Shown: positions 10,026 through 56,938 of the stretch, in pieces
Layout of the letters: every line of letters starts with the position of its first letter
How positions within the stretch are numbered: the stretch's first letter is position 1
DNA from: Candidatus Omnitrophota bacterium
GTDB lineage: Bacteria; Omnitrophota; Gorgyraeia; Duberdicusellales; 4484-171
Length of the DNA stretch: 64,000 nt
Direction of reading: 5' to 3'
Assembly: GCA_021735655.1 (NCBI GenBank)
Contig: JAIPGM010000003.1
Span: forward strand, 32,001-96,000
Made by a program: the position numbers and the translations under genes
The notes under the pieces: model-generated
Told to the model about the DNA's origin: nothing
Database searches by the model: none
The model's input: only the letters and a program-made list of their open reading frames with translations

Positions 10026-10109
10026 AAATAATAAATTAAGAATAAAAAATGTTTTAAGATAGTAGAAAATTATTGTATTTTGTAATTAATATTGAGACAA
10101 ATATTTAAA

Positions 10110-25753: not shown

Positions 25754-26490
25754 AGATAAATTTTTTAGGAACAAATGGATGGTACGATACTGATACCGGA
25801 AATACTCTTTGTATTCTTATTGAAACTAAAAAAGAATATATTATTCTCGATGCCGGAGGCGGTTTTTACAAAATTGGTCAATATATAAAGAAAAAGAAGC
25901 CAATTTATCTTTTCTTAAGCCATTTTCATCTCGACCACATTATTGGACTTCATACCTTATTGCTAGGTAACTTTTCTCAGGGGATTAAGCTTTACGGACC
26001 ACCGGGAGTAAAGAAATACTTATCACAAATAGTAAATTATCCTTATACAGCGCCAATTTCTAAGTTAAAAACAAAGGTTATCGTTAATCAAATTAAAAAA
26101 GAAGTACGTTTTCCTTTTAAGGTTGAGTTTGGCAAGCTGCTTCATCCTTCATTATGTTACGGCTATCGGTTTAATTTGGAAGGCAAAACAATTGTTTATT
26201 GCACCGATACCGGAATTTGCAGTAATTTATATAAGTTAGCTAGGGATTCTGATTTATTTATTACTGAATGCTCGGCGACTGCCGGAAAAAAGGAAAAGGA
26301 TTGGCCTCATTTAACGGCTCAGGATGCAGCTAAGGTTGCTAAGAAATCCCAAGTAAAAAAATTATTTTTAGTTCATTTTAATGCTTCCTTATTTAAAACT
26401 GAAAAGCAACGCAATATGGCTAAGGCACAAGCAAAAGAGATATTTGGGAATACTTTTGCGGCCAGTGACGGACAAGTAGTTAATTTATAA
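25750..26490 (+). CDS. MBL-fold metallo-hydrolase (RNase Z/PhnP-like fold)
   Basis: LSHFHLDHIIGL (HxHxDH) and downstream His/Asp ligands. Embedded in the CDP-sugar module. Confidence 0.6.
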   Translation: MKINFLGTNGWYDTDTGNTLCILIETKKEYIILDAGGGFYKIGQYIKKKKPIYLFLSHFHLDHIIGLHTLLLGNFSQGIKLYGPPGVKKYLSQIVNYPYTAPISKLKTKVIVNQIKKEVRFPFKVEFGKLLHPSLCYGYRFNLEGKTIVYCTDTGICSNLYKLARDSDLFITECSATAGKKEKDWPHLTAQDAAKVAKKSQVKKLFLVHFNASLFKTEKQRNMAKAQAKEIFGNTFAASDGQVVNL

Positions 26491-26501
26491 AGCTTTAAAT
26501 A

Positions 26502-27386
26502 ATGAAGAAAACACCCGTAGCTATAATTGGTACTGGAAATATTGGTACTGATCTTTTAATTAAGATCCAGCGTTCGTCAATTTTAGAATGTGTTCTTTTT
26601 ACTGGCCGGCGTCTAGATTCACGGGGCATGCAAAGAGCAAGGTTGCTTGGCGTACCCATTTCCGATCAATCAATAAAAGCCATTCAGAGAAATCATAATA
26701 TTTGCGATATAGTCTTTGACGCAACCTCAGCTAAAGCTCATCAATATCACGCACCAATTTTAAAGAAATTAGGTAAGATCGCTATAGACTTAACGCCTTC
26801 AAAAGTTGGCAAGATGTGTATACCGGTTATTAACATGAACCAATGTTTAGATGAAAATAATGTGAATTTGGTTACTTGCGGCGGTCAAGCAGCTATTCCA
26901 ATAGCTCATGCAATTATGAGGGTGCATCCGGAGACCGAATATATAGAAGTTGTAGCAAGTATTGCTTCTAAATCCGCGGGCCTTGGGACTAGAGATAATA
27001 TTGATGAGTTTACTCAGACTACCGGTGATGCTATTTTAAATTTTACCGGAGTTCCTCGGGCAAAGGCAATTATTATTTTAAATCCGGCTGAACCACCAGT
27101 TTTAATGCACAATACCATTTATGCCCAGATTACTAAGCCAAAGATCAAAAAAATGACTGCGGCAATAAATGATATTGTTAACAAGGTTCAAAAATATGTT
27201 CCTGGTTATAAAGTAACTGTGGGTCCAGTGGCCGAGGGCAATCGGGTAACGGTTATGATTGAGGTGGTGGGTTTGGGCGATTTTCTTCCTAAATATTCCG
27301 GCAACTTAGATATTATTACCTGCGCTGCTGTGAATATTGCGGAAAGTTTTGCTCAAAAAAAGATAAGAGGCAAAGTGCCTTTATGA
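26502..27386 (+). CDS. Acetaldehyde dehydrogenase (acylating), DmpF/MhpF family
   Basis: VAIIGTGNIGTDLLIKI, DIVFDATSAKAH and IDLTPSKVGKMCIPVINM with the catalytic Cys align closely with MhpF (VAIIGSGNIGTDLMIKI...DIVFDATSAGAH...IDLTPAAIGPYCVPVVN). Confidence 0.75.
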   Translation: MKKTPVAIIGTGNIGTDLLIKIQRSSILECVLFTGRRLDSRGMQRARLLGVPISDQSIKAIQRNHNICDIVFDATSAKAHQYHAPILKKLGKIAIDLTPSKVGKMCIPVINMNQCLDENNVNLVTCGGQAAIPIAHAIMRVHPETEYIEVVASIASKSAGLGTRDNIDEFTQTTGDAILNFTGVPRAKAIIILNPAEPPVLMHNTIYAQITKPKIKKMTAAINDIVNKVQKYVPGYKVTVGPVAEGNRVTVMIEVVGLGDFLPKYSGNLDIITCAAVNIAESFAQKKIRGKVPL

Positions 27387-28435
27387 AAAAAAGGAAAAAG
27401 ATTTTATTCTTTGATTCTACTTTGCGCGATGGGTCTCATGCAATTAGCCATCAGCTGAAAGCTTCCCAGATTAAGCAATATTGTAAGTATGCAGATGACT
27501 CAGGGTTACATACAATTATTGTCGGCCATGGAAATGGTCTAAGTGCCTCATCTTTGCAGGTAGGGTTGTCGGCTCTTTCTGATACAGAGATGATTGTAAC
27601 TGCTCGCAAGAATCTTAAAGCTACGAAATTGGGAGTTTTTTTGATTCCTGGTTTTGGTACAATTAAGGATGATCTTGCTCCGGCAATTGATCAAGGGGTT
27701 GATTTAGTTTGTGTTGCTTCTCATTGTACCGAGGCTAATGTTACTCGTCAACATATCGAATACGTAAGAAAACGAGGCAAAGCCGCTTATGGGGTTTTAA
27801 TGATGCAGCATATGGCTTCAGCCGAACGTTTATCCGAAGAAGCTCACAAAATGCAAGATTATGGCGCATTGGGTGTTATTTTAATGGATTCTGCCGGAGC
27901 TTCTCATCCGGAGATGGTTTCAGAGCGGGTTGGCCTACTAGTTAAGAATCTTGATTGTCAAGTTGGATTCCATGCTCATAATAATTTAGGTTTAGCGATT
28001 GCTAATTCATACAGTGCAATTAAAGCTGGGGCTACAATTATTGATGGAACAGTTAGGGGTTTTGGGGCTGGGGCCGGGAATTGTCAAATTGAAGTTTTAG
28101 CAGGATTGCTCTATAAAATTGGCGTAAAGACAGGTCTAGATTTATATAAATTGATGGATGTTGGTGATGAAGTAGTAACTAAATTGAGTGAGAAATCTCA
28201 AGGTGTGAGCTCAATTAGCCTAATTAGCGGAATAACTGGGGTTTTTTCGGGTTTTTCTAAACATGTTGAGAAAGCAGCTAAGCGATTTGGCGTTGATCCG
28301 CGAGATATTTTTATGGAGTTAGGAAAAAGAAAAATGGTAGCCGGGCAGGAAGATTATATTGTTGACGTGGCAATGTATTTAGCTCAGAAGAAAACTGGCC
28401 AGAAAGACAGCTATCAGATAGAATCACTTTCTTAA
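27383..28435 (+). CDS. 4-hydroxy-2-oxovalerate aldolase-like (DmpG/MhpE family, DRE-TIM metallolyase)
   Basis: DSTLRDGSHAISHQ (DxxLRDG), FHAHNNLGLAIANSYSAIKAGATIIDGTVRGFGAGAGN and ELGKRKMVAGQEDYIVDVA match the MhpE/DmpG catalytic and communication-domain motifs. Confidence 0.75.
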   Translation: MKKRKKILFFDSTLRDGSHAISHQLKASQIKQYCKYADDSGLHTIIVGHGNGLSASSLQVGLSALSDTEMIVTARKNLKATKLGVFLIPGFGTIKDDLAPAIDQGVDLVCVASHCTEANVTRQHIEYVRKRGKAAYGVLMMQHMASAERLSEEAHKMQDYGALGVILMDSAGASHPEMVSERVGLLVKNLDCQVGFHAHNNLGLAIANSYSAIKAGATIIDGTVRGFGAGAGNCQIEVLAGLLYKIGVKTGLDLYKLMDVGDEVVTKLSEKSQGVSSISLISGITGVFSGFSKHVEKAAKRFGVDPRDIFMELGKRKMVAGQEDYIVDVAMYLAQKKTGQKDSYQIESLS

Positions 28436-28448
28436 TAAGGAGTAGACA

Positions 28449-30230
28449 ATGAGAGTGGCCGATTACATTTTTAATTTTTTAGTCGATAAAGGCGTAAGAA
28501 ATGTTTTTATGGTTTCCGGCGGCCAAGCTATGTTTTTGGTTGATGCTGTTGGACGTCAAAAAGAAATAGAAGTTGTTTGTACACATCATGAACAGGCAGC
28601 TGGGATGGCAGCTGAAGCTTATGGGCGAGTAACTCAAAAATTAGGAGTAGCTTTAGTTACTGCCGGGCCGGGCAGTATGAATATTGTAAATGCGGTAGCC
28701 GGAGGCTGGACAGATTCATCACCAATGATGGTTATTTCCGGCCAATCATCTTTATCATATGTACAGTATCAAGAAGAAACTAATATTCGACAGTATGGAA
28801 TTCAAGGAATTTACATTAAGCCAATAGTTCAGAATATTACTAAGTATTTTGTTACTGTTGATGATCCAGCAAAAATTTTATTTTATCTTCAAAAAGCTTA
28901 TTATTATGCAACTACTGGGCGTCCTGGCCCGGTTTGGATCGATGTTCCGATTGATGTGCAAAAGATGGAGGTTCCCGATCGCTTATTAGAAGAGTTTGAA
29001 CCACCGCTTGAGGCTTATCTTCCCGATGAGCTAACAGATAGTGTTGAGCTGTTATTGACGACAATTTCCAAAGCTAAGCGGCCAATATTTTTAGTTGGCC
29101 AGGGTGTTCGCTTGGGCGGTGCGGTTGATCAGTTTTATCAAGTTCTTGAAAGATTAGCGATTCCGGTATTAACCTCGCGTCTGGGAATAGATTTAATTAA
29201 TAGTGATCATCGTCTTTATGTCGGTCGTCCAGGAATTTATGGTGAGCGAGCAGCTAACTTTGCAATTCAGAATGCTGATGTTATAGTGGCTGTTGGCTCG
29301 CGCTTAGCAACAGCATTAGTTGGCTATGATTCTAAAAACTTTGGTAAACAGGCTTATAAAATAGCTGTTGATATTGATAAAAAAGAGCTAAATAAGATCG
29401 GCGTTGAAATAAATTTGCGAATTCATGCTGATGTAAAAGATTTTTTTAAAGAAATCCAGCGGCAGCTAGTTTCGGTTTCAGTTGGCGATTTTAGTCAATG
29501 GATTAAACAATGTAATGATTGGAAAAAGAACTATCCGGTAGTTTTGCCGTCTTATGAGAAGGAGAAACCAGTCAATTCTTATTATTTTACTGAAAAGCTA
29601 TCTCAGGTTACACCTTCTGAGGTAATGGTTTTGGTTGATACTGGTTCTTGTTTTCATGTGGCTTGTCAGGCTTGGAAGATTAAAACCGGGCAACGTTTTC
29701 TTACTACTGGGGGTCTTTCTTCGATGGGTTATTGGGCTGCAGTTTTGGGGGTTTGCGAGGCCAACAATCGAAAGAATACGATTGTTATTACCGGTGATGG
29801 TAGCTTACAGATGAATTTACAGGAATTAGCAACAATTAAACATTACAATTTTCCGATTAAAGTTATTATTTTCAATAACAACGGTTATCTTTTAATAAGG
29901 CATACACAGAAGAACTACATGAATAGTCGTTTTTGCGGTGAAGGGCCGGATAGCGGTGTTTGGTGTCCGGATTCTTTAAGGATAGCCGAGGCCTATGGGA
30001 TTAAAGGTGTCCGCATAGATTCAGTTAAAGGGCTTAGTGAAAAAATTAAAGAAGTAATTGAATATCCCGGCCCGGTGGTTTGCGATGTAATGACTCCTGA
30101 GTGGCAATTACTTATTCCTCGAGTTTCTTCAGAAAAAAAGCCCGATGGAACATTGGTTTCAAAACCCTATGAAGATATGTACCCGTTTTTGAGTAAAAAA
30201 GAATTAAAACAAAACATGCTTTTTGAATAA
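28449..30230 (+). CDS. Thiamine-diphosphate-dependent enzyme of the acetolactate-synthase-large-subunit family (YerE-like candidate C-C branching enzyme)
   Basis: N-terminal Pyr domain (VFMVSGGQAMFLVDA...THHEQAAGMAAEAYGR). ThDP-binding GDG-X24-NN motif ITGDGSLQMNLQELATIKHYNFPIKVIIFNNNGY. Confidence 0.7.
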   Translation: MRVADYIFNFLVDKGVRNVFMVSGGQAMFLVDAVGRQKEIEVVCTHHEQAAGMAAEAYGRVTQKLGVALVTAGPGSMNIVNAVAGGWTDSSPMMVISGQSSLSYVQYQEETNIRQYGIQGIYIKPIVQNITKYFVTVDDPAKILFYLQKAYYYATTGRPGPVWIDVPIDVQKMEVPDRLLEEFEPPLEAYLPDELTDSVELLLTTISKAKRPIFLVGQGVRLGGAVDQFYQVLERLAIPVLTSRLGIDLINSDHRLYVGRPGIYGERAANFAIQNADVIVAVGSRLATALVGYDSKNFGKQAYKIAVDIDKKELNKIGVEINLRIHADVKDFFKEIQRQLVSVSVGDFSQWIKQCNDWKKNYPVVLPSYEKEKPVNSYYFTEKLSQVTPSEVMVLVDTGSCFHVACQAWKIKTGQRFLTTGGLSSMGYWAAVLGVCEANNRKNTIVITGDGSLQMNLQELATIKHYNFPIKVIIFNNNGYLLIRHTQKNYMNSRFCGEGPDSGVWCPDSLRIAEAYGIKGVRIDSVKGLSEKIKEVIEYPGPVVCDVMTPEWQLLIPRVSSEKKPDGTLVSKPYEDMYPFLSKKELKQNMLFE

Positions 30231-37239: not shown

Positions 37240-38598
37240 ATGTTTTTTAAACCGAGAAAGAAAAAAGCATTTGTTATTGGCCTAGATTGTGCTCCGCCGA
37301 GACTTCTCTTTGATAAATTTAAAGATGAGCTGCCTAATTTCAAGATGATGCTAGATAAAGGGGTTCATTGTCCTATGCGTTCAGTGCATCCGCCGATTAC
37401 AATTCCAGCCTGGATGAGCATGTGCTCTGGCTTGGATGTTGGCGAGATTGGCGTTTATGGGTTTAGAACCCGAAAAGATAATTCTTATACAGAATTTGAT
37501 ATCTCTACTTCTAAAAAGTTTTCTCAAATCGATAAGATTTGGGATATTTTAGCAAAATTAAAAAAGAAAAGTGTTCTTGTAGGTGTTCCTCCAAGTTACC
37601 CAACTTATCATATTGATGGAGGTATGATTTCGGGATTTATTTGTCCTGACGCAGCCAGTAATTTTACTTATCCTGAAAGCTTAAAGGGTGAAATTGAAGA
37701 GTTAGTTGGAGAATATAAACTTGATGTGGTGTTTAGAACCGAAGATCGAGATAAGCTAATAAAATCTGCCTGGGAGATGACCGAGAAGAGATTCAAGGTT
37801 ATTGAGTACTTAATAAAAAATAAACAGTGGGATTTTTTTATGTTCGTTGAGATTGGCGTAGACAGAATTCAGCATGCTTTTTGGAAATATTATGATCCGT
37901 CACACCATCTTTATCAACCTGAGCATAAGTATAAAAACGTCATTTTCGATTACTATAAATTTATTGATCAAAAAGTTGGAAAGATTCTTTCAGTTTTGGA
38001 TAAAGATACTACTGTTTTTACAGTATCCGATCACGGGGCAAAGTCAATGAAAGGAGTTTTTTGTCTTAATGAATGGCTTATTGATAAAGGTTATTTAGTG
38101 TTAAATAAATATCCTGATAAGATAGCCAGCTTCAATCAGCTAGATGTTGATTGGCAAAAAACTCGGGCCTGGGGTTGGGGAGGCCATTGTGGAAGGATTT
38201 TTATTAATAAAAAGAACCGCGAAACTCAAGGGTTAGTTAGAGATTCTGAATATGAGAGTTTGCGCGACGGTCTAATTAAGGAGTTAGAAAATGAAACCGA
38301 TCCTTTAGGTAAACCTTGGAATACGAAAGTTTATAAGCCTAAGGATGTCTATAAAGTGTTAAATGGAACCCCTTCGGACCTTGTGGCTTATTTTGATGAC
38401 TTAGCATATAGGGGTGCAGGTACCGTAGGGCATAAAAAGATTTTTCTAGAAGAAAACGATACTGGTCCTGACGATGCCGCACATGATTGGCAAGGTGTAT
38501 TTATTGAGTATAGTCCTTTAAGTAAAAGTGCAGAAGAATTAAACCAAATAAGCATCCTTGATTTCAAAGATAGAGTATTAAAGAGCATGGGAATATGA
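37240..38598 (+). CDS. Alkaline-phosphatase-superfamily enzyme, type I phosphodiesterase/nucleotide pyrophosphatase (NPP, PF01663-like)
   Basis: VIGLDCAPPRLL...VHPPITIPAWMSMCSGLDVGEIGVYGF is comparable to the NPP nucleophile region (PTxTFPNHYxxVTGLYPESHGI). A distal metal-site motif VSDHGA is also present. Confidence 0.55.
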   Translation: MFFKPRKKKAFVIGLDCAPPRLLFDKFKDELPNFKMMLDKGVHCPMRSVHPPITIPAWMSMCSGLDVGEIGVYGFRTRKDNSYTEFDISTSKKFSQIDKIWDILAKLKKKSVLVGVPPSYPTYHIDGGMISGFICPDAASNFTYPESLKGEIEELVGEYKLDVVFRTEDRDKLIKSAWEMTEKRFKVIEYLIKNKQWDFFMFVEIGVDRIQHAFWKYYDPSHHLYQPEHKYKNVIFDYYKFIDQKVGKILSVLDKDTTVFTVSDHGAKSMKGVFCLNEWLIDKGYLVLNKYPDKIASFNQLDVDWQKTRAWGWGGHCGRIFINKKNRETQGLVRDSEYESLRDGLIKELENETDPLGKPWNTKVYKPKDVYKVLNGTPSDLVAYFDDLAYRGAGTVGHKKIFLEENDTGPDDAAHDWQGVFIEYSPLSKSAEELNQISILDFKDRVLKSMGI

Positions 38599-39696: not shown

Positions 39697-41565
39697 ATGG
39701 ATATTTTTATTATTGGAATATTGTGGGCTGCGGCGACTTTTTTTCTTTTTGGGGTCATTGTTGGGATAGGAATAAGTTTTCTAAATAGGTTTAATTTTTC
39801 CTTTATTGGAAACCTATGGTTTTATTTTCTGACCGGCCTTTCCTATATAGCTTATTTAGGCGTAAGAATTATACCCTTGGCTGGTTTGTTGGGATTAATA
39901 TTGGAGGGGTTGCTTGGCATATCAAGATCTGCAGTTATTTTAGTATATCTTGGCTGCACGATTAATCTTCTGACTTACTTTTTTGCCAAATGGTATATTA
40001 CTGGAAAAGAAATACCCTCGACCGTCATAAGTTTCATCCCGGTGGTTCTTTTGGTAATTTTTCGTGAAAGTTTTTCATTGAAAATTATTACTTCTTTGGG
40101 TGCGGTTTGGCTGAGCTTAGTAATTTCAATTAGCTTTCTGGCAGCTTTAATAAGAACTTTTTTTCGTAAGAAAACTACTGGCCAAAAAAGCCAAATTAAA
40201 CCTAATAATTCTTTAAAGCCGGAAGTCAACCAGGTTAATAAAAAAGTAGCTTTTATAGGATTAGATGGTTGCGATTGGCAGTTATTAAAGAGATTTATAG
40301 ATCAAGGTAAATTGCTTACTTTCCGAAGGCTTATTGACGGGGGGGCGTCAGCTAGGCTTAAAACTATTCAGCCGACTCTCTCGCCTTTAATTTGGAACTC
40401 TATACTTACTGGCAAATCGCCTTCCGATCACGGTATCGCCCATTGGTATAAAACTAAATTTCCCCTTCTGCCTCCAGTCGTAGGGGATATTGTCCATCCG
40501 CGCTATTGCCGTTCGAAGCGGATTATTTTATGGTTAATAAAGAAAAATCTGATTAGAAGAATTCCTTTTTCAACCGAGGATAGAGGAGTTAAGGCCATTT
40601 GGAATATATTATCTGATTACGATAAGAGCTCTATTAACGTAGGGTGGATTTTTAGCTGGCCAGCTGAAAAGATTAGGGGGGTTCAGGTAAGTTGGCTTTT
40701 TTATCCTTTTGAGGAGGCAGCTCAAGGTTTTAAAAGATTTAGCTCAAGCAAATTGCCTCAAAGAGTCTATCCGGAAAGTCTATTTGCTGATCTTGAGCGT
40801 TTCATTGTTAGGCCTTCTGATTTAGCCGATGCTGAGTTACGCAGTATGCATTTTACAACCGAAAGTATTAATCCTGAGAAACTTTATGTTGATAAGTTAA
40901 GTCCCTGGGATTATACTAAAGACAAAACTTTTTTACAGGTTAGCAGTTATTTGCTCGACCAAAATAAAGAGTTTGATTTTTTCTCTTTATATCTTTATGG
41001 AATTGACGCCGTTTGTCATAATTACTGGCCATTTTCTAAAGATGCAAGCAACAATCAAAAGCATAAAAACGAGCTACTTTCAGTTAGCGACAGCGAAAAA
41101 TTTAAAAAAGAGGCTGAATCGTTTGATAAATGTATTTTGCGTTATTATGAATATTTAGATAGTGAAATTGCTAAACTTTTAAGTAAGCTTGGTCAAGATT
41201 GCAATATAGTCATAGCTTCTGACCACGGATTTAATTTAGACGGTAGTGAACATGAGAATGCCCCCGATGCGGTGTTGATTGCTTATGGACCTTATATCGC
41301 TAAGGGTAAAAACTTAAGTTCTCTTTCGATATATGATGTTTTGCCTACGGTTTTATGCTTGTTGGGCTTACCATTGGCAAATGATATGCCGGGCAGGGTA
41401 GCTAAGGAGTTGTTTAGCGATCAATTTTTGAATGCTTTTCCTTTTAACTATATTGATAGTTACGAACACACTAGCGATAAGTTAAATGATAGGAGCTTTA
41501 AATTGGATGAGGCTAGCCGCAAAGGTATAGAAGAACGCCTTAGGTCCTTAGGTTATATAGATTAA
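39697..41565 (+). CDS. Membrane-anchored alkaline-phosphatase-superfamily (NPP-type) enzyme
   Basis: About 170 aa of N-terminal TM helices, then VAFIGLDGCDWQLL...PTLSPLIWNSILTGKSPSDHGIAHW and ASDHGF. It is a paralogue of the 37240 gene. Confidence 0.55.
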   Translation: MDIFIIGILWAAATFFLFGVIVGIGISFLNRFNFSFIGNLWFYFLTGLSYIAYLGVRIIPLAGLLGLILEGLLGISRSAVILVYLGCTINLLTYFFAKWYITGKEIPSTVISFIPVVLLVIFRESFSLKIITSLGAVWLSLVISISFLAALIRTFFRKKTTGQKSQIKPNNSLKPEVNQVNKKVAFIGLDGCDWQLLKRFIDQGKLLTFRRLIDGGASARLKTIQPTLSPLIWNSILTGKSPSDHGIAHWYKTKFPLLPPVVGDIVHPRYCRSKRIILWLIKKNLIRRIPFSTEDRGVKAIWNILSDYDKSSINVGWIFSWPAEKIRGVQVSWLFYPFEEAAQGFKRFSSSKLPQRVYPESLFADLERFIVRPSDLADAELRSMHFTTESINPEKLYVDKLSPWDYTKDKTFLQVSSYLLDQNKEFDFFSLYLYGIDAVCHNYWPFSKDASNNQKHKNELLSVSDSEKFKKEAESFDKCILRYYEYLDSEIAKLLSKLGQDCNIVIASDHGFNLDGSEHENAPDAVLIAYGPYIAKGKNLSSLSIYDVLPTVLCLLGLPLANDMPGRVAKELFSDQFLNAFPFNYIDSYEHTSDKLNDRSFKLDEASRKGIEERLRSLGYID

Positions 41566-48966: not shown

Positions 48967-49974
48967 ATGAAGAGAATTGGAATTATCGGTTGTGGACATT
49001 GGGGCCCGAATTATCTGCGTAATTTTAGTCAGTTAGAAGATTCATCAGTATTAGTTTGTTGTGACTTATCAAAAGATAATTTAGATAAGGTTAAGAAACA
49101 CTACAGATCGATAGAGGTTGTTGAAGATTACAAGGATGTGCTTAGGGACAAGCGTATTGATGCGGTTGTCATTGCTACTCCTGCTCGAACTCATTATAAA
49201 ATCGCTAAAGATGCACTTTCAGCCGGTAAGCATATTTTATTAGAAAAGCCAATGGCTTTAAACTATGCAGATTGTAAAAAGTTGGTCAATTTGGCAAAAG
49301 AAAAGAAAAGAATCCTTATGGTTGGTCACACTTTTTTGTTTAATCCGGCTGTAAGAAAGTTGAAGGATTATATAAAAAAAGGTGCTGTGGGAAAGATTTA
49401 TTATTTGCATGCAACCAGGACACATTTAGGTTTAGTCCGTAACGATGTAAATGTGAGTTGGGATTTAGTACCACATGATATATCTATATTTTCTTATTTA
49501 TTAGGAGAAATGCCGATTAGTGTTTCAGCTTTGGGCGGATCCTTTTTGAGAAGTCCGAAACAAGATGTAGTGTTTATTAATTTAATTTACCCGAAGGGTA
49601 TAATTGCTAATATTCATGCTAGCTGGGCCGATTCCAATAAGGTTAGAGAAATTCAGGTAATCGGCAGTCGGGCCAGAGTGGTTTTTGATGATTTAAATAG
49701 TATGGAAAAGATAAAACTGTACAAGAAAGGAATATCTGTAGATAAGTCATATGCCAATTTTGGTGAATTCCAATTACTTTTAAGAGACGGCGATATTCTT
49801 AGTCCCAAAATTGGTCCCGAGGAACCGCTACGACTTCAATGCCAACATTTTTTAAACTGTCTTAAAAACGGAAAGAAGCCATTTGTTGATGGAGAAGACG
49901 GTGCGAGTGTTGTTAAGATAATGAATGCAATAAATAAATCTTTAGTATTGGGAGCTAGGGTGGTTAAAGTATGA
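48967..49974 (+). CDS. Gfo/Idh/MocA family NAD-dependent sugar-nucleotide oxidoreductase (WbpB/GnnA-like)
   Basis: MKRIGIIGCGHWGPNYL Rossmann start and a central EKPMA motif. Confidence 0.75.
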   Translation: MKRIGIIGCGHWGPNYLRNFSQLEDSSVLVCCDLSKDNLDKVKKHYRSIEVVEDYKDVLRDKRIDAVVIATPARTHYKIAKDALSAGKHILLEKPMALNYADCKKLVNLAKEKKRILMVGHTFLFNPAVRKLKDYIKKGAVGKIYYLHATRTHLGLVRNDVNVSWDLVPHDISIFSYLLGEMPISVSALGGSFLRSPKQDVVFINLIYPKGIIANIHASWADSNKVREIQVIGSRARVVFDDLNSMEKIKLYKKGISVDKSYANFGEFQLLLRDGDILSPKIGPEEPLRLQCQHFLNCLKNGKKPFVDGEDGASVVKIMNAINKSLVLGARVVKV

Positions 49975-50579
49975 AAACGAAGAATTTCTTAATTGGAAAA
50001 AATTCTAAAATTGATAAATCGGTAATCTTAGGTGAGAAAACAGGCAGGAAAATTAAGATTTCAAAGACGATTATCGGAAAAGATGCAAGGGTAAGGTCAA
50101 ATACGGTTATTTATTCAAATACTAAGATTGGCGATGGATTGGAGACAGGGCACAATGTTGTGATTCGCGAACAAAACAAAATCGGCAATAATTTAAGTAT
50201 TTGGAATAACTCTACCATTGATTATGGATGTGAAATTGGCAATAATGTTAAGATCCACGCCAATACTTATGTAGCTCAGTTTACTGTCATTGAAGATGAT
50301 GTTTTTCTAGCTCCCGGGGTAATGATTGCAAATGATCCTCATCCTATCTGTACAAAATGCATGAAAGGCCCATTAATAAAAAAAGGGGCACGGATCGGGG
50401 TGAATGTTACGCTTTTACCTAATATTGTAATTGGGGAAAATTCTTTAGTTGGAGCCGGCAGCGTTGTCACTAAGGATGTTGCGGCTAACGTGGTAGTTTT
50501 TGGCTCACCGGCAAAAGTAGGCGGAAGAATTAAAGATTTAAAGTGCAAAGCAAGAATAAAGGATAGAGCCTATGAGTAA
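49971..50579 (+). CDS. Hexapeptide-repeat N-acetyltransferase (WbpD-like)
   Basis: Repeated [LIV]-G-x4 hexapeptides throughout ([31 protein letters not shown]...[13 protein letters not shown]...). Confidence 0.75.
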
Positions 50580-51693
50580 TAATAAGATGAACGTTCCTTT
50601 TGTGGATTTACAGATTCAATATCGTAAGTTGAGCAAGGAAATCAATCAACGGTTAATTGAAACAGTTGAAAGCGGTTCTTTTATTTTAGGTGAAAGTGTT
50701 CAAAAGTTTGAGCAGGAATTTGCTAATTATTGTGGCGCAAAACATGCTGTAGGTATTGCTTCGGGAACTGCTGCTTTATTTTTGTCTCTAAAAAGCTTAG
50801 GAGTCGGCAGGGGAGATGAAGTAATTACTCCGGCAAATACATTTATTGCAACAGCCTTAGCTATTTATTATACCGGAGCAAAGATTATCTTAGTAGACAT
50901 AGATGAAGAAACCTATAATTTAGATATAAAAAAGACAGAAGCGGTAATAAATAGCAAAACCAAAGCTATCCTACCAGTGCATCTTTATGGTCAACCGATA
51001 GATTTAGAGCCTTTACTTGCTTTAGCTAAGAAACACAACTTAATAGTTGTTGAGGATGCTTGCCAGGCTCACGGTGCTGAATATAAAGGCAAAAAGGTGG
51101 GAGGATTCGGTAACGCTGCAGCCTTTAGCTTTTATCCTGGTAAAAATTTAGGTGCTTTTGGTGATGCCGGTATAGTAGTGACTAACGATGAAAAGGTTAA
51201 AGATGAATTGATCATGTTGAGAAACTATGGCCAGAAACAAAAGTATCATCATTTAGTAAAAGGGTATAATTCTCGTTTAGATACAATTCAGGCAGAAATA
51301 TTGAGAGTTAAGCTTGGCTATTTAGACCAATGTAATGAAGAGCGAAGAAAAAGTGCTCAAGTTTATAAAACCTTGCTTCAAAGCATCAGTGACCGTATCT
51401 TAATTCCTAAAGAAATGTCATCAGTAAAACATGTTTGGCATCTTTATGTAATTAGGGCAGAAAAAAGAGATGACTTACAGGAATATCTTAAAAAGGCAGG
51501 GATTAGTACCGGTATACATTATCCTATTCCGATTCATTTGCAGCCGGCTTTTTCTGATTTAGATTATAAGAAGGGAGACCTTCCTGTTACAGAAAAGACT
51601 GCTGATCAGATTCTTTCTTTGCCGATGTACCCAGGGTTAAAAGAAGAGCAAATTGAATATGTTGTGAAAAAAATAAGTGATTTTTTGCAGTAA
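50572..51693 (+). CDS. DegT family aminotransferase (WbpE/GnnB-like)
   Basis: [29 protein letters not shown], and [15 protein letters not shown] with the PLP Lys. Confidence 0.8.
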
Positions 51694-51709: not shown

Positions 51710-52807
51710 ATGAAGCTATTTTTTAAATCTTGGCAGAAAAAAAGTAAAAAGAAGAGAATTCTTTTTGCTGGAGTCTGCCATGCTAATTTCATACAGTTTA
51801 GGCCAATTTATGAGATCCTTAAGCAGGATCCAAGAGTTGAAATTTTATTCTCTGGTATGTATCAAAGTAAAGACCGGCCGCGTGAACTCTATAAACCTTT
51901 TAATATAGATAAGAAATTCATCATAAGAGAAAAGTTCGCAAAAACTTTGAGTTTTGACATCTATATTAGCCCAGATTATCACATGATTGACAATAACTAT
52001 TCTTCAACTATTCAGTTTTTTCACACCACTTCTTTTAGAAATTTCTCAGTTAGTGAAGAGGCAAAAAGCTTTGATCAGATTTTTTTAATTGGGCCGTACA
52101 TGAAGCGTAAGTTTATCGAGGCAGGTATTTTTGAAGTTGATGATCCGAGATTAAAAGAAGTAGGCATGCCGCAAACAGATGCTCTTTTAGATAATATCGA
52201 CACTGGTTTGTCTGAGAGACTTGGCTTAGATAAGAGTCTTCCGACTATACTTTACGCTCCAGTCTGGGCGCCGATAGAGAGCTTTCTTGAAGATGTTCAA
52301 ACAACACTTAAAACTTTAACCTCAATTAAGGCTAATCTTCTTCTTAAGTTGCACGATAAATTTTATTATCAACAGGTAAATAAAATTAGATGGCGGGAGT
52401 TTTTGAATTTGGTGCTAAGCGAGAATAAGAATGTACATTTAATAGATGATTTTGATATTATACCTTACATGAAAATTAGTGATTTGCTTGTCAGCGACGT
52501 TAGTGCTGTTGTACATCAGTTTTCTATATTAGATAAGCCAATAGTATGCATGAAGGTAGATGTTGATGAGTTTAAAAAGTTCTGGCCAGGGCTTGATCAT
52601 AAAGCCTATTTAGATCGCGCGGTAATAGAAGCTTCTCAAGGAGAGGCTTTAAAAGAGGCAGTTTTGGGAGAACTTGCTAATCCTGGCAATTTGAGTCAAA
52701 AACGGATAGCCATGAGTAAAGAGTATTTTTATAATATTGGGTTTTCTGCAAAATGCGCAGTTTCGCAAATTTATCAGTCTTTTAATCTAAAGAATACAGA
52801 TGAATAA
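51710..52807 (+). CDS. CDP-glycerol glycerophosphotransferase family protein (TagB/TagF-like)
   Basis: The TILYAPVWAP segment resembles the TagF-family ...LYAPT[WF]R core. It is followed by a GT-B-like C-terminal half. Confidence 0.5.
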   Translation: MKLFFKSWQKKSKKKRILFAGVCHANFIQFRPIYEILKQDPRVEILFSGMYQSKDRPRELYKPFNIDKKFIIREKFAKTLSFDIYISPDYHMIDNNYSSTIQFFHTTSFRNFSVSEEAKSFDQIFLIGPYMKRKFIEAGIFEVDDPRLKEVGMPQTDALLDNIDTGLSERLGLDKSLPTILYAPVWAPIESFLEDVQTTLKTLTSIKANLLLKLHDKFYYQQVNKIRWREFLNLVLSENKNVHLIDDFDIIPYMKISDLLVSDVSAVVHQFSILDKPIVCMKVDVDEFKKFWPGLDHKAYLDRAVIEASQGEALKEAVLGELANPGNLSQKRIAMSKEYFYNIGFSAKCAVSQIYQSFNLKNTDE

Positions 52808-53903
52808 AAAGCCGCTTTCCTCAAAAAATAGTTTCTTAGTTAAACTGAAAGTCAGCCAAGAAATCCTTATGGATGCCGAGCAAATAGCTATAGGTGGGTA
52901 CGCTCCAGTTGATGGTTTTATGGGAAAGGCTGACTTTGAATCAGTTTTGAATAATATGCGCCTTGTAAAAGGTGATGTTTGGACTTTGCCAATAGTGTTA
53001 GATATAAGTAAAAAAGAAGCAGCATCAATTAAAATCGGGGATGAAATATTGCTTGGTGACGGCCAGGATCAGGAAAATTTTCTTTTTTCTGTGGAAGATA
53101 TTTATGAACATGATAAATCTTTGTATTGCGATAAGGTTTATGGTACTAAAGATGTAGCTCATTCAGGAGTAGCAAAGGTGCTTAAGATGGGAGAGGTCCT
53201 TGTAGGGGGCCGGGTTATATCGGTTTTAAATAATTTTGATTTTGATATGCGTAAATTCACCATGACCCCGAAAGAGACAAAAGCCCAGTTTGAAAAAAAT
53301 AATTGGAAAACGGTTGTTGCTTTTCATACCCGGAATGTGGTGCACAGAGCCCATGAGTATCTTCAGCGCTGTGCTATGGAATATGCCGATGGAATTTTGA
53401 TCCATCCTGCGGTTGGCTTTACAAAACCCGGTGATTTCAAGAAAGAGCTTATAATAAAGGGCTATCAAAGTTTAATTGATAACTATTATCCAAAAAATAA
53501 AGCTCTTCTCTCGGCTTTGGGCATAGGCATGAAATTTGCCGGGCCAAGAGAAGCTGTATTTCATGCCTTGGTGCGGAAAAATTATGGTTGTACACATATA
53601 ATTATTGGTAGAGATCATGCTGGCGTAGGCGGATACTATGAGAAGTATGCCGGACATAAGATATTTTCTAGTTTGCCATCTTTGGGCATAACCCCTTTAT
53701 TATTTAAGGGACCGTTTTATTGCAATAAATGTGAAGCTATGGCTACCGAAAGCACCTGCTCGCATGATGAGTCTTATAGGTCAGAAGTCAGCGGAACATT
53801 AGCTCGTAAATTCATAAAGGAAAAGAAAAAGCTCCCTAAGTGGCTGATGCGTCCTGAAATCGCAAACTTGCTTGAAGACCTCGGTGAAAGCGTTTTTTCT
53901 TAA
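52800..53903 (+). CDS. sat: Sulfate adenylyltransferase (ATP sulfurylase)
   Basis: FHTRNVVHRAHEYL (QTRN...HRAH motif) and IIIGRDHAGVGGYY (GRDHAG motif) are diagnostic of ATP sulfurylase. No APS-kinase domain is fused or adjacent. Confidence 0.8.
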   Translation: MNKKPLSSKNSFLVKLKVSQEILMDAEQIAIGGYAPVDGFMGKADFESVLNNMRLVKGDVWTLPIVLDISKKEAASIKIGDEILLGDGQDQENFLFSVEDIYEHDKSLYCDKVYGTKDVAHSGVAKVLKMGEVLVGGRVISVLNNFDFDMRKFTMTPKETKAQFEKNNWKTVVAFHTRNVVHRAHEYLQRCAMEYADGILIHPAVGFTKPGDFKKELIIKGYQSLIDNYYPKNKALLSALGIGMKFAGPREAVFHALVRKNYGCTHIIIGRDHAGVGGYYEKYAGHKIFSSLPSLGITPLLFKGPFYCNKCEAMATESTCSHDESYRSEVSGTLARKFIKEKKKLPKWLMRPEIANLLEDLGESVFS

Positions 53904-53926
53904 AACTTAAATAAGGAGTAAACAAG

Positions 53927-54469
53927 ATGTTAATAATTTCACAACATGCAAGATTGTTGCATATTCCTTTTCCTGATACTGCTGTATTTAGGGTAAATGT
54001 TGCTTGGATTAAAAGTCAGGAAGAGTTATTCAGCTTACTAAAGCAAATTAAGAATGATGTATTTTTGGATTTTCCTGAAGGGCGATTCAAACCGCCGATC
54101 CCTATTTTAGGTTTAGACGATTTATTGGGAGCCATGGATAGGTTTGACAATATAAAATATTTTGGGGTGACCAATGTGACAGCAGCCGAACAAATTATTG
54201 AAATGAGAAAGAAAGTTCCTCAGAGAGTAATATTAATACCTAAGGTGGAGTCAAGAGAAGGAATAGACAATTTAGAAAAGATACTTGGCCAGCTAGAAAA
54301 GGGTGAAAAATTTATAATGCTAGATAAAGAGGATCTATATACTGATTTAAAGGAGCATAAGGAATTATTTGAACAATATGTTCAGTTGGTAAAAGATAAA
54401 TGCAGGAAAAATAATATTAGCGTGCTTGAGTTGCAAGGTGTGATATTTGCAGCGAATGAAGACTTATAA
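53927..54469 (+). CDS. Hypothetical 180-aa protein; LIPKVESREGIDNLEKIL resembles the active-site strand of the pyruvate-kinase/HpcH TIM-barrel superfamily
   Basis: ORF with an AAGGAG RBS. The motif is comparable to pyruvate kinase IISKIEN.EGV.N.DEIL, but the protein is too short to be a complete barrel. Confidence 0.3.
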   Translation: MLIISQHARLLHIPFPDTAVFRVNVAWIKSQEELFSLLKQIKNDVFLDFPEGRFKPPIPILGLDDLLGAMDRFDNIKYFGVTNVTAAEQIIEMRKKVPQRVILIPKVESREGIDNLEKILGQLEKGEKFIMLDKEDLYTDLKEHKELFEQYVQLVKDKCRKNNISVLELQGVIFAANEDL

Positions 54470-54481
54470 GAGGATTATGGA

Positions 54482-55231
54482 ATGTCGGATATATCCGTAG
54501 TTATCGTTACCGAGAATGCTCAAGACACTATCAAAGACTGTCTTGATTCAGCAAGCTGGGCTGATGAAATTGTTGTTGCAGATGCTGAAAGCAGTGACCA
54601 AACAATTGAGATTGTTACTAAATATACAGATAGAATAGTCAAGATCGACCCACAGCTTAATTCTGGACAGCGGTGGAATCAAGCTATAGCCGCAGCAAGT
54701 AAAAATTGGATATTTTTGCTTGAATCCGACAAAAGAATACCGTTGGCTCTAAGGCTTGAATTAGAAAAGAGAGTTAAAGAAAATAAGTTAAAGGATGCAG
54801 ATGGGTATTTAATTAATACAAGAAATTATTTTTTGAACCATTGGGTTAAGACGGCCGGTTTTTATCCCGATCGTAAATTATATATTTTTAGAAAAGGTAT
54901 GGCTAAATTCCAAGAGCGACAACGTGGCTGTATTGTTTTTGAAGGCAAGATTGATAATCTAAACGGGTATATTGAACATTACGTTTATAGATCTTTAGAA
55001 CAGTGTTTTTCTAAAGTAAATAAAGAGTCAGATAATTTGGCAGAAGAATTTTTTGGCCAGGGGTTAATTTTTAAAAAGCGGTTTGTAATCACAAAACCCT
55101 TGAGAACATTTAAAAAACAATACTTTCGTCATCGGGGCTCAAAGCAAGGGATGGCAGGGTTGTTGATTTCTCTTGTCGCTGCTTTTGAATGTTTTTTTGT
55201 CTATATAAAGGTGTGGGCAATTAGGAGATAG
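54482..55231 (+). CDS. GT2 glycosyltransferase, KdtX/WaaE-like (LPS core)
   Basis: SVVIVTENAQDTIKDCLDSASWADEIVVADAESSDQTIEIV parallels the KdtX N-terminus. Confidence 0.65.
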   Translation: MSDISVVIVTENAQDTIKDCLDSASWADEIVVADAESSDQTIEIVTKYTDRIVKIDPQLNSGQRWNQAIAAASKNWIFLLESDKRIPLALRLELEKRVKENKLKDADGYLINTRNYFLNHWVKTAGFYPDRKLYIFRKGMAKFQERQRGCIVFEGKIDNLNGYIEHYVYRSLEQCFSKVNKESDNLAEEFFGQGLIFKKRFVITKPLRTFKKQYFRHRGSKQGMAGLLISLVAAFECFFVYIKVWAIRR

Positions 55232-55232
55232 A

Positions 55233-55997
55233 GTGAAAACAAGGTTGAGTTTTTCAGCGGTTATAATCACTAAGAATGCAGAGGCTAAGATAAGAAATTG
55301 CCTCGAGAGTATAAAATGGGCAGATCAGGTGGTAGTGGTTGATGGATTCTCGACCGATTCGACGGTCGATATTTGTAAAGAGTATGGCGCTAAGATCGTT
55401 CAAAGAAAATTCGAAGGTTTTGATAAAGAAAGAAACGCCGGCATTGAACATGCTTCTGGAGATTGGATTCTTCAGTTAGACGCTGATGAGGTAGTGAGCG
55501 AAGATATGCGCAAGGCTGTAAAGGAAGTGCTTAGTGGTGATGAAAAATATAATGCCTATAAATTTCGCAGGCAGAATTTCTTTTTAGGTAAAGCCATGCG
55601 GTATGGAGGATGGTACCACTACTCTGCTCATTTTTTAAGGAAAGGCAAGGCTCATTATGAAGGCAGCATTCATGAAACTCTTGTTGTTGATGGTCCGATT
55701 GGTAAGTTGGAGGCAGCAGTAGAGCATTATCCTTTTGACAATATATCGGATTTCATCAGGCGTCAAAACAGATACACTAACCTTCAGTCACAAAGGATGC
55801 TCGATGATTTAGGCATTAAAGATGATAAATTTATAAAAAAGAATCTTTTAAAACGAATGCGTAAGGTATTTTGGAAGACTTACATAAAGAAAAAAGGGTT
55901 CAAGGAAGGAATGCATGGTTTAGTATTCAGTATTCTTTTTGTTTGGGTGGAATTTATTAAATGGGCAAAGTATTGGGAACTAGTCAGTAAAAAGTGA
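55233..55997 (+). CDS. GT2 glycosyltransferase, KdtX/WaaE-like (tandem paralogue)
   Basis: SAVIITKNAEAKIRNCLESIKWADQVVVVDGFSTDSTVDICKEYGAKIV. GTG start with an AGGAG RBS. Confidence 0.65.
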   Translation: MKTRLSFSAVIITKNAEAKIRNCLESIKWADQVVVVDGFSTDSTVDICKEYGAKIVQRKFEGFDKERNAGIEHASGDWILQLDADEVVSEDMRKAVKEVLSGDEKYNAYKFRRQNFFLGKAMRYGGWYHYSAHFLRKGKAHYEGSIHETLVVDGPIGKLEAAVEHYPFDNISDFIRRQNRYTNLQSQRMLDDLGIKDDKFIKKNLLKRMRKVFWKTYIKKKGFKEGMHGLVFSILFVWVEFIKWAKYWELVSKK

Positions 55998-56938
55998 AAA
56001 AAGTTTTATTCATTCGTTCAGACAGATTGGGAGAGTTTTTATTGAGCCTCCCAGCAATTAAACTTTTCAAACTTAATTATCCTCAAAGTGATGTTTACCT
56101 TTTGGCTCAAAAAACTAATATTGAGCTAACCAAGGATGTCGACTTCATCGATTATTTTTTAGAATATAAAGAAAATAGCTTTTCTGGCTTTAAAGGAGTT
56201 TTTCGTTTAGCAGCCTGCTTAAGAAAAGAAAAAATAGACTGTTTAGTGGCTATGAACCCTAAAAAGGAGTTTCATCTAGCTGCTAAGCTAGCCGGTATAC
56301 CTTTACGGGTTGGCTATGATCGAAAGTGGGGCTGGTGTTTAAATAAAAAAATTAAAGATAAAAAGTATTTGGAAGAGAAACACGAGGTTGAATATAATAT
56401 AGAATTAGTAAGGTTGATTTGTGGGGATTTGCCAGCGCTCGAAGTTGATCTTAAGGTCGACGGGCAAGAGTCACTAGATTTTTTAAAAGAAGATTTAGAT
56501 ATCTCAAGTTCTTATTTAATAGTTCATCCATTTACTTCTAATCCCTTAAAGAAGGTTTATTTTGAGTTCTGGCGAAGCTTAATAAGACGGTTAAAAGAAA
56601 AAGGCTTTGAAAATATTGTACTTATTGGCGCAACCAGCGAAAAAGAAGAGGCTAAGGAATTAGCAGCTGAGCTGGGAATTATTGACTTAGTTGGAACTAT
56701 GAGCTTGCGTAATCTAGCTGCTTTTATGAAATATAACTGCTCAGCCTTTGTTGGGTTAGATTCGGGGCCAATGCATTTAGCCAGTTTATTCAAAATTCCG
56801 GTGGTAAGCTTATTTACCACTTCAAATCCTAAACGTTGGGGTCCCTGGAAAACCAAGTCTTTGGTTTTTGAGCTAAAACCAAAAGAGGATTTTTCTAATC
56901 AAGTTACTGAGGCAGTAAATTTTATCCTTAAACAATAA
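55994..56938 (+). CDS. GT9 glycosyltransferase (LPS heptosyltransferase family)
   Basis: VLFIRSDRLGEFLLSLPAIKLFKLNYPQSDVYLLAQ... and a C-terminal GLDSGPMHLAS motif. Confidence 0.75.
   Translation: MKKVLFIRSDRLGEFLLSLPAIKLFKLNYPQSDVYLLAQKTNIELTKDVDFIDYFLEYKENSFSGFKGVFRLAACLRKEKIDCLVAMNPKKEFHLAAKLAGIPLRVGYDRKWGWCLNKKIKDKKYLEEKHEVEYNIELVRLICGDLPALEVDLKVDGQESLDFLKEDLDISSSYLIVHPFTSNPLKKVYFEFWRSLIRRLKEKGFENIVLIGATSEKEEAKELAAELGIIDLVGTMSLRNLAAFMKYNCSAFVGLDSGPMHLASLFKIPVVSLFTTSNPKRWGPWKTKSLVFELKPKEDFSNQVTEAVNFILKQ

Follow-up and report, generated by a model that had tools for sequence, protein, structure and literature searches.

The window analyzed here is a 64,000-nucleotide stretch of contig JAIPGM010000003.1 (assembly GCA_021735655.1, positions 32,001 to 96,000) from a Candidatus Omnitrophota bacterium. 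Approximately 60 kb of it forms one co-directional glycan locus, which ends at xseA/xseB, rpsO, and pnp, and which contains a trio of genes for a TagF-like phosphotransferase, a variant ATP sulfurylase, and a small pyruvate kinase (PK)-like protein. The trio belongs to a widespread cassette whose probable task is to synthesize a charged group, sulfate-like or phosphate-linked, and to decorate a glycan with it. An original prediction, made from the sequence alone, had placed three open reading frames (ORFs) here, and all of them are present on the + strand:

51710..52807, + strand, TagF-like phosphotransferase of 365 aa (PF04464 Glyphos_transf)
52800..53903, + strand, ATP sulfurylase of 367 aa with a Gln176His substitution, hereafter sat-H (PUA_2 and ATP-sulfurylase domains)
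53927..54469, + strand, PK-fold barrel of 180 aa, hereafter mini-PK (predicted fold and motif alignment)

The stop of the TagF-like gene and the start of the sulfurylase gene overlap by 8 nt at ATGAATAA, which bears out the translational coupling predicted for this pair, and an AAGGAG ribosome-binding site is located approximately 7 nt upstream of the mini-PK ATG. All three products are small, soluble-looking proteins. The comparisons given below firmly support that the three genes belong together, that the sulfurylase is the occupant of a nucleotidyltransferase (NTase) slot in this window, and that mini-PK is the constant element of a cassette family of which the other two parts vary.

Sequence and predicted structure of the three proteins

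The sulfurylase matched PUA_2 (PF14306) at 132 bits and the ATP-sulfurylase domain (PF01747) at 278 bits, and exceeded the NCBIfam cut-offs for sulfate adenylyltransferase (PRK04149, 443 vs 387 bits; TIGR00339, 356 vs 323 bits). The motifs HRAH and GRDHAG, on which the original call had been based, were located at residues 182–185 and 270–275, so that this call is upheld. Its top solved relative was the ATP sulfurylase of Methanothermococcus thermolithotrophicus (8a8d, 332 bits). The canonical QTRN motif is not present, since sat-H reads FHTRNVVHRAH where the three solved enzymes aligned with it read FQTRN. From the yeast and Penicillium structures, we take the Gln of this motif to be one of three sulfate ligands and the Arg to bind sulfate as well; the Arg is kept in sat-H. 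Among the 120 top homologs, column 176 is occupied by His in 22 and by Gln in 97, and the 12 nearest are all of the His type, which forms four groups in a rough neighbor-joining tree. This column is the sole strict discriminator between His- and Gln-type enzymes. The weak second one, K190R, was rejected as a further specificity marker, since the Gln-type Thermus enzyme also carries Arg there. Because a single strictly discriminating column was found, the sat-H pocket is not visibly enlarged.

The TagF-like assignment held in a profile search, where the protein scored 63.4 bits against PF04464 (cut-off 22.1), and the catalytic domain of Staphylococcus epidermidis TagF (PDB 3l7i) was matched with an E-value of 1.5e-7. 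The two catalytic His residues of TagF are H444 and H584. Candidate counterparts were recognized by eye in the motifs IQFFHTT and LLLKLHD, while the HMMER alignment spans the H584 region only and is slightly out of register. A supply of CDP-glycerol or CDP-ribitol (TagD, TarI/J) was also sought. In a phmmer search of all window frames with seeds from related loci, no PF01467 NTase was found, nor was any adenosine 5'-phosphosulfate (APS) kinase, sulfotransferase, or CysQ, confirming the earlier remark that the window shows no APS kinase or canonical sulfotransferase. From the precomputed Pfam matches for approximately 60 kb of the window, genes for APS kinase, sulfotransferase, CysQ, and a TagD-type enzyme are likewise missing; listed are general NTP_transferase and CTP_transf_3 genes, among which no dedicated CDP-glycerol/CDP-ribitol synthase was recognized. 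The TagF-like gene is, moreover, coupled to the sulfurylase gene and co-varies with it. This makes a separate glycerol-phosphate decoration, as originally suggested, doubtful, and the TagF-like enzyme is more likely a transferase of the sulfurylase product than a glycerol-phosphate enzyme. A non-polyol donor is accepted by the TagF-like enzyme FtaD, which uses CDP-N-methylthreonine (bioRxiv 10.64898/2026.02.12.704994).

Sequence searches of mini-PK against PDB, Pfam, and NCBIfam gave nothing beyond sub-threshold PK and HpcH matches. It reached 23.7 bits for HpcH_HpaI (PF03328; gathering score 25), the family of HpcH/HpaI aldolases and citrate lyase beta, 15.4 bits for PK (PF00224; 30), and 15.7 bits for TIGR01064 (306). 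AlphaFold2 modeling from a 31-sequence alignment yielded a seven-stranded beta/alpha structure with a predicted local distance difference test score of 93.5. This fold corresponds to a PK A-domain from which strand/helix 8 is missing, and neither a B nor a C domain is present. A short GRxKPPxP loop takes the place of the B domain. The PK/HpcH-like motif pointed out in the original prediction thus became a confidently predicted PK A-domain fold. Invariant residues of the family align with four PK motifs, namely R22 and N24 with RLNFSH; D48, R53, and K55 with LDTKGPEIR; K106 and E108 with KIEN; and D133-K-E-D136 with ARGD (D-K-E-D-L in mini-PK, A-R-G-D-L in PK). Given this alignment and our general knowledge of PK, we take them to be the phosphoryl- and Mg-binding residues. 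The model and the alignment together identify mini-PK as a predicted PK-fold barrel that retains the phosphoryl-transfer residues of PK. It has the A-domain fold and the phosphoryl- and metal-binding residues of a pyruvate kinase, whereas it has neither the family scores nor the B and C domains, and comprises 180 residues against approximately 470. Two other assignments were considered for this protein. That of a phosphonate enzyme, i.e., phosphoenolpyruvate (PEP) mutase, was rejected, as the protein matches PK in both fold and motifs and a genuine PEP mutase is present separately in one related locus (L015). That of an alternative APS 3'-kinase was set aside, as three related loci (L015, L020, and L023) and several viral loci have an APS kinase too.

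Recurrence of the trio in other genomes and viruses

The loci encoding mini-PK came from three sources: 18 were taken from one-genome-per-species contigs, 73 from metagenomes, and 45 from the viral contigs of IMG/VR. De-duplication at 90% identity left 101 groups. Their neighbors were annotated using phmmer seeds, which had been checked against Pfam and NCBIfam. At E<1e-30, 1.84 billion proteins contained 111 representatives of this rare family, which occurs in bacteria of the candidate phyla radiation (CPR), archaea of the DPANN group, Omnitrophota, and viral contigs. A HIGH-superfamily NTase or sat gene lies within 5 kb of mini-PK in 78 of the 101 groups. In 65 groups, a HIGH-type NTase or sat gene is no more than 150 nt away; in most cases it immediately precedes mini-PK, and overlaps are frequent. 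A TagF-like, LicD-family, or sulfotransferase gene is located within 5 kb in 55 groups, many of the contigs being short. The order of TagF, NTase or sat, and mini-PK is common to the window, L007, L009, L010, L012–L014, and L016, and the commonest order in CPR is TagF-like, small NTase, and mini-PK.

A small HIGH-type NTase takes the slot of the sulfurylase in approximately 60 related loci. The mini-PK of the window is 67% identical to a Saganbacteria copy whose partner is such an NTase, and NTase–mini-PK gene fusions occur in L022/L068. These small NTases scored best on RfaE domain II (100–120 bits; cut-off 181.5) and gave 50–60 bits on TagD, both below the cut-off. Since RfaE domain II is an adenylyltransferase, an adenylylated donor is plausible in all loci. 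RfaE-domain-II-like NTases act on phosphate esters, and their occupation of the sulfurylase slot in most of the related loci makes the ordinary route from APS to 3'-phosphoadenosine 5'-phosphosulfate (PAPS), which the original prediction had put forward, doubtful.

A PK-like gene adjoins all eight His-variant sulfurylases whose surroundings were readable (the window included), while none of the eight has an APS kinase within the 6–10 kb visible. The trio is conserved across loci whose sulfurylases are just 44–52% identical. The PK-like partners of sat-H are as follows:

window, L007, and L064: mini-PK, which in L064 is separated from sat-H by a Sulfotransfer_3 gene in the TagF slot
L104 (6331-7071): 246-aa PK without the B domain
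L025 (9389-10864), L026 (8087-9529), and L027 (8146-9570): B-domain-less PK fused to NTP_transf_3
L105 (388-2040): PK retaining the B domain, fused to NTP_transf_3

A mini-PK profile aligned to the domains of the larger partners with 97.6% probability, and the multiple alignment gave a reduction series from PK (A and B domains) with NTP_transf_3, through B-less PK with NTP_transf_3 and the 246-aa B-less form, to the 180-aa mini-PK. The functional partnership proposed between the 180-aa protein and the sulfurylase agrees with this constant neighborhood. Similarly, the idea of a dedicated, non-housekeeping sulfurylase is sustained by the recurrence of the trio in diverged genomes; the doubtful part is ordinary APS-to-PAPS sulfation, in view of the lack of a nearby APS kinase and the altered ligand. 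Close relatives of the 246-aa form, with identities of 74% or more, number approximately 35, and a few carry the source annotation "pyruvate kinase."

The TagF-like proteins next to sat-H constitute a separate subgroup. Among the loci collected, the nearest relatives of the window protein are those of L027 (41% identity) and L026 (34%), both located beside His-variant sulfurylases, whereas it shares only 24–30% identity with the TagF-like proteins of CPR. The TagF-like gene overlaps or abuts sat-H in the window, L007, L025, L026, and L027, and the overlap is kept in the window, L026, and L027.

Sulfation-type genes also accompany mini-PK. In several loci, a sulfotransferase gene is directly 3' of, or overlaps, the mini-PK gene; in L020 and L023, sat–APS kinase and CysQ come after it. 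A separate APS kinase and CysQ are encoded in L015 on the opposite strand from mini-PK. As relatives of mini-PK share operons with sat–APS kinase, sulfotransferase, and CysQ, its link to sulfate-type activation chemistry is considered to be real. The same Peregrinibacteria locus (L015:7009-13917) contains a PEP mutase–NTP_transf_3 fusion and a phosphonopyruvate decarboxylase, which are divergent from mini-PK and a Sulfotransfer_1 gene, so that phosphonate and sulfation-type genes occur in one locus with APS kinase and CysQ near.

Viral loci contain triads of NTase, mini-PK, and LicD, some of which have a capsid gene close by, and a second viral set consists of an NMNAT-like mini NTase, an APS-kinase-like gene, mini-PK, and Sulfotransfer_2. 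Mini-PK is encoded on 44 IMG/VR viral contigs (L106–L149). In one group (e.g., L125:4922-9082), a phage capsid gene (PF19821) is located approximately 3 kb upstream of the triad. In L136, L138, and L139, a carbamoyltransferase gene precedes the NMNAT-like mini NTase, the APS-kinase-like gene, and mini-PK, followed by Sulfotransfer_2 in L138 and L139; L136 is labeled as a metagenome-assembled genome of a giant virus. No match to mini-PK was found in INPHARED cultured-phage records, PLSDB plasmids, PHROGs, or the BFVD structure library.

Small membrane proteins similar to PQ-loop/SemiSWEET (15 de-duplicated groups) and FNT channels were observed inside NTase/mini-PK cassettes (for example L044:7179-7586, L023:9502-9996, and L008:10556-11380), which hints at small-solute import or export tied to the pathway. 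The mini-PKs of DPANN (L003–L005, L019, L021, and L054; e.g., L003:8001-8789) have no NTase or glycan genes close by, and adjoin an ORF of 77–98 aa of no known family as well as translation-factor and housekeeping genes. This suggests a different or more general role in these archaea.

Possible chemistry of the cassette

The explanation that we tentatively favor is a cassette of the "make, activate, transfer" type. In the first step, mini-PK would draw on PEP or a nucleotide triphosphate to form an anion with a phosphoryl group, Y-P, and so take the place of the kinase in LicA/LicC/LicD-type or HldE-type pathways. In the second step, sat-H would bind Y-P in its altered sulfate pocket and transfer AMP from ATP, producing an APS-like donor, AMP-P-Y, together with pyrophosphate. 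Then, on the TagF-like enzyme, a sugar hydroxyl would attack the distal phosphorus, leading to the release of AMP and to sugar-O-P(O2)-Y on the glycan that the surrounding locus produces. By analogy with Campylobacter O-methyl phosphoramidate in the first case and with the phospholactyl/enolpyruvyl branch of F420 biosynthesis in the second, Y may about equally well be a small sulfate mimic such as phosphoramidate, as suggested by the APS-kinase-like and sulfotransferase-fold neighbors and the unenlarged pocket, or a pyruvate-like 2-phospho-hydroxy-acid or PEP, as suggested by the PK fold and the monocarboxylate-type transporters. This mechanism is preferred because it follows the standard kinase/nucleotidyltransferase/transferase logic and fits the gene fusions and the minimal viral cassettes, in which a mere ATP regenerator would be superfluous, and also because the sole change lies in the sulfate pocket, no other donor source for the TagF-like enzyme was found, and TagF-like enzymes take unusual donors. 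If the cassette works as proposed, sat-H would be an ATP sulfurylase whose specificity has changed in nature, with a single residue as the marker, and mini-PK would be the smallest known PK-fold phosphotransferase.

Several observations weigh against this mechanism. L020 and L023 carry a complete PAPS pathway (canonical FQTRNP sat–APS kinase, CysQ, and sulfotransferase) in addition to mini-PK, which it poorly explains. The B domain is retained in the L105 partner, and hardly any PK catalytic motif has been lost from the larger forms, which fits an ordinary reaction of ADP and PEP. L025–L027 and L105 have both sat-H and an NTP_transf_3 domain, an apparent redundancy, and an adjacent NTase is missing from the DPANN loci and from about one group in four overall. 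Regarding the enzyme itself, sat-H passes equivalog-level cut-offs of true sulfate adenylyltransferase, a His is still able to hydrogen-bond sulfate, and the unenlarged pocket, as judged from the alignment, argues against a bulky Y-P.

The strongest rival is true sulfation independent of PAPS, which is possible if rather doubtful. Here, sat-H would make APS, from which the TagF-like enzyme (Sulfotransfer_3 in L064) would move the sulfuryl group to the glycan with release of AMP, while the PK-like enzyme would spend PEP either on regenerating ATP from ADP/AMP or on pulling the unfavorable sulfurylase equilibrium in place of APS kinase. It is favored by the sulfurylase scores together with the retained HRAH, GRDHAG, and Arg of (Q/H)TRN, by the recurrence of mini-PK with sat–APS kinase, CysQ, and three sulfotransferase Pfam families, and by the L064 sulfotransferase in the TagF slot beside sat-H and mini-PK. 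Because His-variant sulfurylases were never found with an APS kinase nearby (eight examined), something else must pull their reaction, and the larger PK-like partners retain PK motifs and, in one case, the B domain. It also gives the best account of complete PAPS operons that still contain mini-PK and of the nearly intact PK motifs in the larger partners. However, we know of no TagF-family sulfotransferase, and the residue altered is the universally conserved sulfate-binding Gln. In approximately 60 loci, the slot holds an RfaE-II/TagD-like NTase of a family whose substrates are phosphate esters rather than sulfate, and these NTases would have to work differently from the sulfurylase in an otherwise identical cassette. 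Furthermore, mini-PK is without the B domain and strand/helix 8, which from PK structures we take to form much of the ADP site, and a virus would gain little from an ATP regenerator.

A variant of the favored mechanism, in which the nucleotidyl transfer comes first, is quite unlikely. In this variant, sat-H or the small NTase would adenylylate PEP to ADP-enolpyruvate, comparable to FbiD/CofC making enolpyruvyl-diphospho-5'-guanosine. The PK-like barrel would then pass the ADP-phosphoryl group to Y-H (ammonia or an alcohol) with the enol ester leaving, giving ADP-Y and pyruvate, and ADP-Y would be used by TagF, LicD, or sulfotransferase-fold enzymes. Both Q176H and K190R introduce side chains that could bind an additional carboxylate, although K190R is conservative and shared with the Gln-type Thermus enzyme. 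The fusions join PK to NTP_transf_3, a fold family which we take to include the PEP guanylyltransferase of F420 biosynthesis, and, with the B domain missing, the active site could be open enough for a PEP that carries a nucleotide. Such an order would also account for the fact that no X-phosphate source besides PEP is conserved nearby. The variant is, however, entirely inferential; a PK-fold enzyme with a nucleotide-bearing phosphodiester substrate has no precedent, and the PAPS-operon contexts are left unexplained, as in the preferred mechanism. A loose association is also unlikely. Mini-PK would here be a minimal substitute for pyruvate kinase or nucleoside diphosphate kinase that tops up nucleoside triphosphates in small-genome organisms, the TagF-like enzyme would use CDP-glycerol or CDP-ribitol made elsewhere, and the sulfurylase would serve another sulfotransferase or sulfur assimilation. 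The DPANN copies among housekeeping genes without an NTase, the reduction series from a PK with A and B domains, and, from general knowledge, the glycolytic kinases that stand in for nucleoside diphosphate kinase in Mollicutes are in line with it. It leaves both the coupling and the His change without an explanation, and is at odds with the HIGH-type NTase/sat adjacency in 65 of 101 groups with often overlapping codons and fusions, the TagF–sat overlap kept in three loci, the distinct subgroup of TagF-like proteins, the tracking of the Gln-to-His change with a PK-like neighbor in eight of eight cases, and the lack in the window of a TagD-type (PF01467) gene or recognized CDP-glycerol/CDP-ribitol synthase. 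Placement of a housekeeping sulfurylase in the glycan locus by chance is very improbable: it is a good ATP sulfurylase by sequence, but it is translationally coupled to the TagF-like gene, carries an active-site substitution, and belongs to a trio whose synteny across 44–52%-identical sulfurylases contradicts such an origin.

The favored mechanism resembles several known systems. TagD/TagF, LicA/LicC/LicD, pneumococcal Gtp1-3 with WchX, and FtaABCD of Clostridioides difficile share the logic of an X-phosphate that is coupled to a nucleotide with loss of pyrophosphate and then transferred to a glycan. The cassette differs from these CDP-activated pathways in its NTase, which is an ATP sulfurylase variant here and an RfaE-II-like protein well under the TagD cut-off in the relatives, and in its donor, which is probably AMP-linked instead of CMP-linked. 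Its kinase slot is occupied by a PK-fold barrel, for which we know of no report in CDP-activated pathways. The pathway for CDP-2-glycerol reportedly includes a kinase among its three genes. These genes are dedicated to CDP-2-glycerol (PMC1391919). In HldE (RfaE), a kinase is likewise fused to an NTase, and the small NTases of mini-PK score best on its domain II; its kinase is, however, of the PfkB type and is followed by heptosyltransferases, whereas the cassette has a PK fold followed by phosphotransferases. The pathway of Sat, CysC, PAPS-sulfotransferase, and CysQ shares with the cassette the full sulfurylase domains and motifs, and related loci have APS kinase, CysQ, and Sulfotransfer_1/_2/_3 beside mini-PK. 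It differs in that a PK-like partner has no textbook role there, a TagF-like protein stands at the place expected for a sulfotransferase, the Gln ligand is His, and APS kinase, sulfotransferase, and CysQ were not found with the sulfurylase in the 64-kb window.

For the F420 branch, CofC/FbiD nucleotidylates PEP or 2-phospho-lactate, and CofD/FbiA moves the phospho-acid to a hydroxyl with release of a nucleoside monophosphate. A PK-fold site would be expected to bind a ligand of its PEP/pyruvate type. Its enzyme families are different except for NTP_transf_3 in the fusions, the acceptor here is a glycan, and no F420 genes are present. In Campylobacter jejuni, O-methyl phosphoramidate (MeOPN), a phosphorus anion that mimics sulfate, is nucleotide-activated, 3'-phosphorylated by an APS-kinase homologue, and put on capsule sugars (PMC3907429, PMC6429109), with 3'-phospho-cytidine diphosphoramidate as an intermediate (PMC6429109). 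Phosphoramidate may thus be cited, by analogy, as one natural precedent of sulfate-assimilation-type enzymes handling a phosphorus anion (PMC3907429, PMC6429109). As in the MeOPN system (Cj1415–Cj1418 and Cj1421/22), related mini-PK loci have an NTase–APS-kinase fusion or an APS-kinase-like neighbor, often with methyltransferases. The window has an NTase-like step and a transferase but not the APS-kinase-like gene, and the activating enzyme is a sulfurylase or HIGH-type NTase in place of Cj1416. No glutamine kinase or amidase homologue was recognized, though no direct search for Cj1417/Cj1418 was made, and a nitrogen source and a P-N bond in the cassette are pure conjecture from this analogy.

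No published description of a sat, PK, and TagF cluster, of the mini-PK family, or of a His-variant sulfurylase was found in the literature searched. The pathway logic is known, while its set of parts is new; that the reactions too are novel is a real chance, though a less than even one. The broader picture would be a PEP-driven route for sulfate-like groups on glycans, common to CPR, DPANN, Omnitrophota, and viruses, and comprising three parts. A seven-stranded PK-fold enzyme would make or drive a sulfate-mimicking or sulfate-containing activated anion, sat-H or a tiny HIGH-type transferase would turn it into an AMP-linked donor without APS kinase, and TagF- and LicD-like proteins would be the first APS-dependent sulfotransferases of these folds or else phosphoramidate transferases. 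That all three parts hold jointly is doubtful. If true, ultra-small bacteria, archaea, and the viruses of both would share a new enzyme family that is bound to a single type of pathway, and the donor range of TagF- and LicD-like enzymes would be widened to AMP-linked donors. Residue 176 could serve to re-annotate "sulfate adenylyltransferase" genes of metagenomes, for which a reading as sulfate assimilation may be wrong. The cassettes also point to an anionic surface decoration on the cells of CPR, DPANN, and Omnitrophota, to whose lifestyle cell–cell attachment and phage recognition are central.

The surrounding glycan locus

The glycan locus holds nonulosonic-acid genes, a CDP-sugar block with a thiamine pyrophosphate (TPP) enzyme and an aldolase, Bac_transf, two Wzy_C-domain genes, a B12-radical-SAM gene, and many glycosyltransferases. 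The trio is flanked by the following genes, assigned by Pfam:

48967..51693, + strand, GFO/IDH/MocA oxidoreductase, hexapeptide acetyltransferase, and DegT aminotransferase
54482..56938, + strand, two GT2 glycosyltransferases and a GT9 heptosyltransferase-like gene, at the end of the glycan locus before xseA/xseB

The upstream genes probably supply an acetamido sugar of the glycan, which may be the carrier of the decoration. All three families are found again next to the cassette in L010 and L013, both of them CPR loci, and two of the families (oxidoreductase and acetyltransferase) also in the sat-H locus L026. The downstream glycosyltransferases are syntenic in L007, an 83%-identical relative. 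No promoter- or terminator-like sites above chance were found inside the operon, including 54482..56938.

Three sizeable ORFs of the glycan locus have no Pfam match, at 6394-7434 (346 aa, Walker A GQPGCGKT), 10092-12260 (722 aa), and 14029-15828 (599 aa). The first of these, a P-loop protein once suggested for a missing step, was rejected as an APS kinase or sulfotransferase: its one recognizable feature is a Walker A motif, it belongs to no Pfam or PDB family, it resembles neither seed set, and its nonulosonic-acid neighborhood is 45 kb from the trio. The glycan locus also includes two NPP-family "Phosphodiest" genes, at 37240-38598 and 39697-41565. Members of this family, at times with sulfatase-family and B12-radical-SAM genes, are also found beside the sat-H loci L025, L026, and L105, and might be further transferases or trimming enzymes of the same decoration. 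The row at 23991-30230 (NTP_transferase, dehydratase/epimerase, metallo-beta-lactamase-fold protein, acetaldehyde dehydrogenase, HMGL-like aldolase, and TPP enzyme) looks like a branched-chain, yersiniose-like sugar pathway. Over the whole window (1-64000), all long ORFs and nearly all of those of at least 120 aa are on the + strand, and the GC skew is positive in each 2-kb bin, which is consistent with one replichore arm carrying a very long co-directional gene array.

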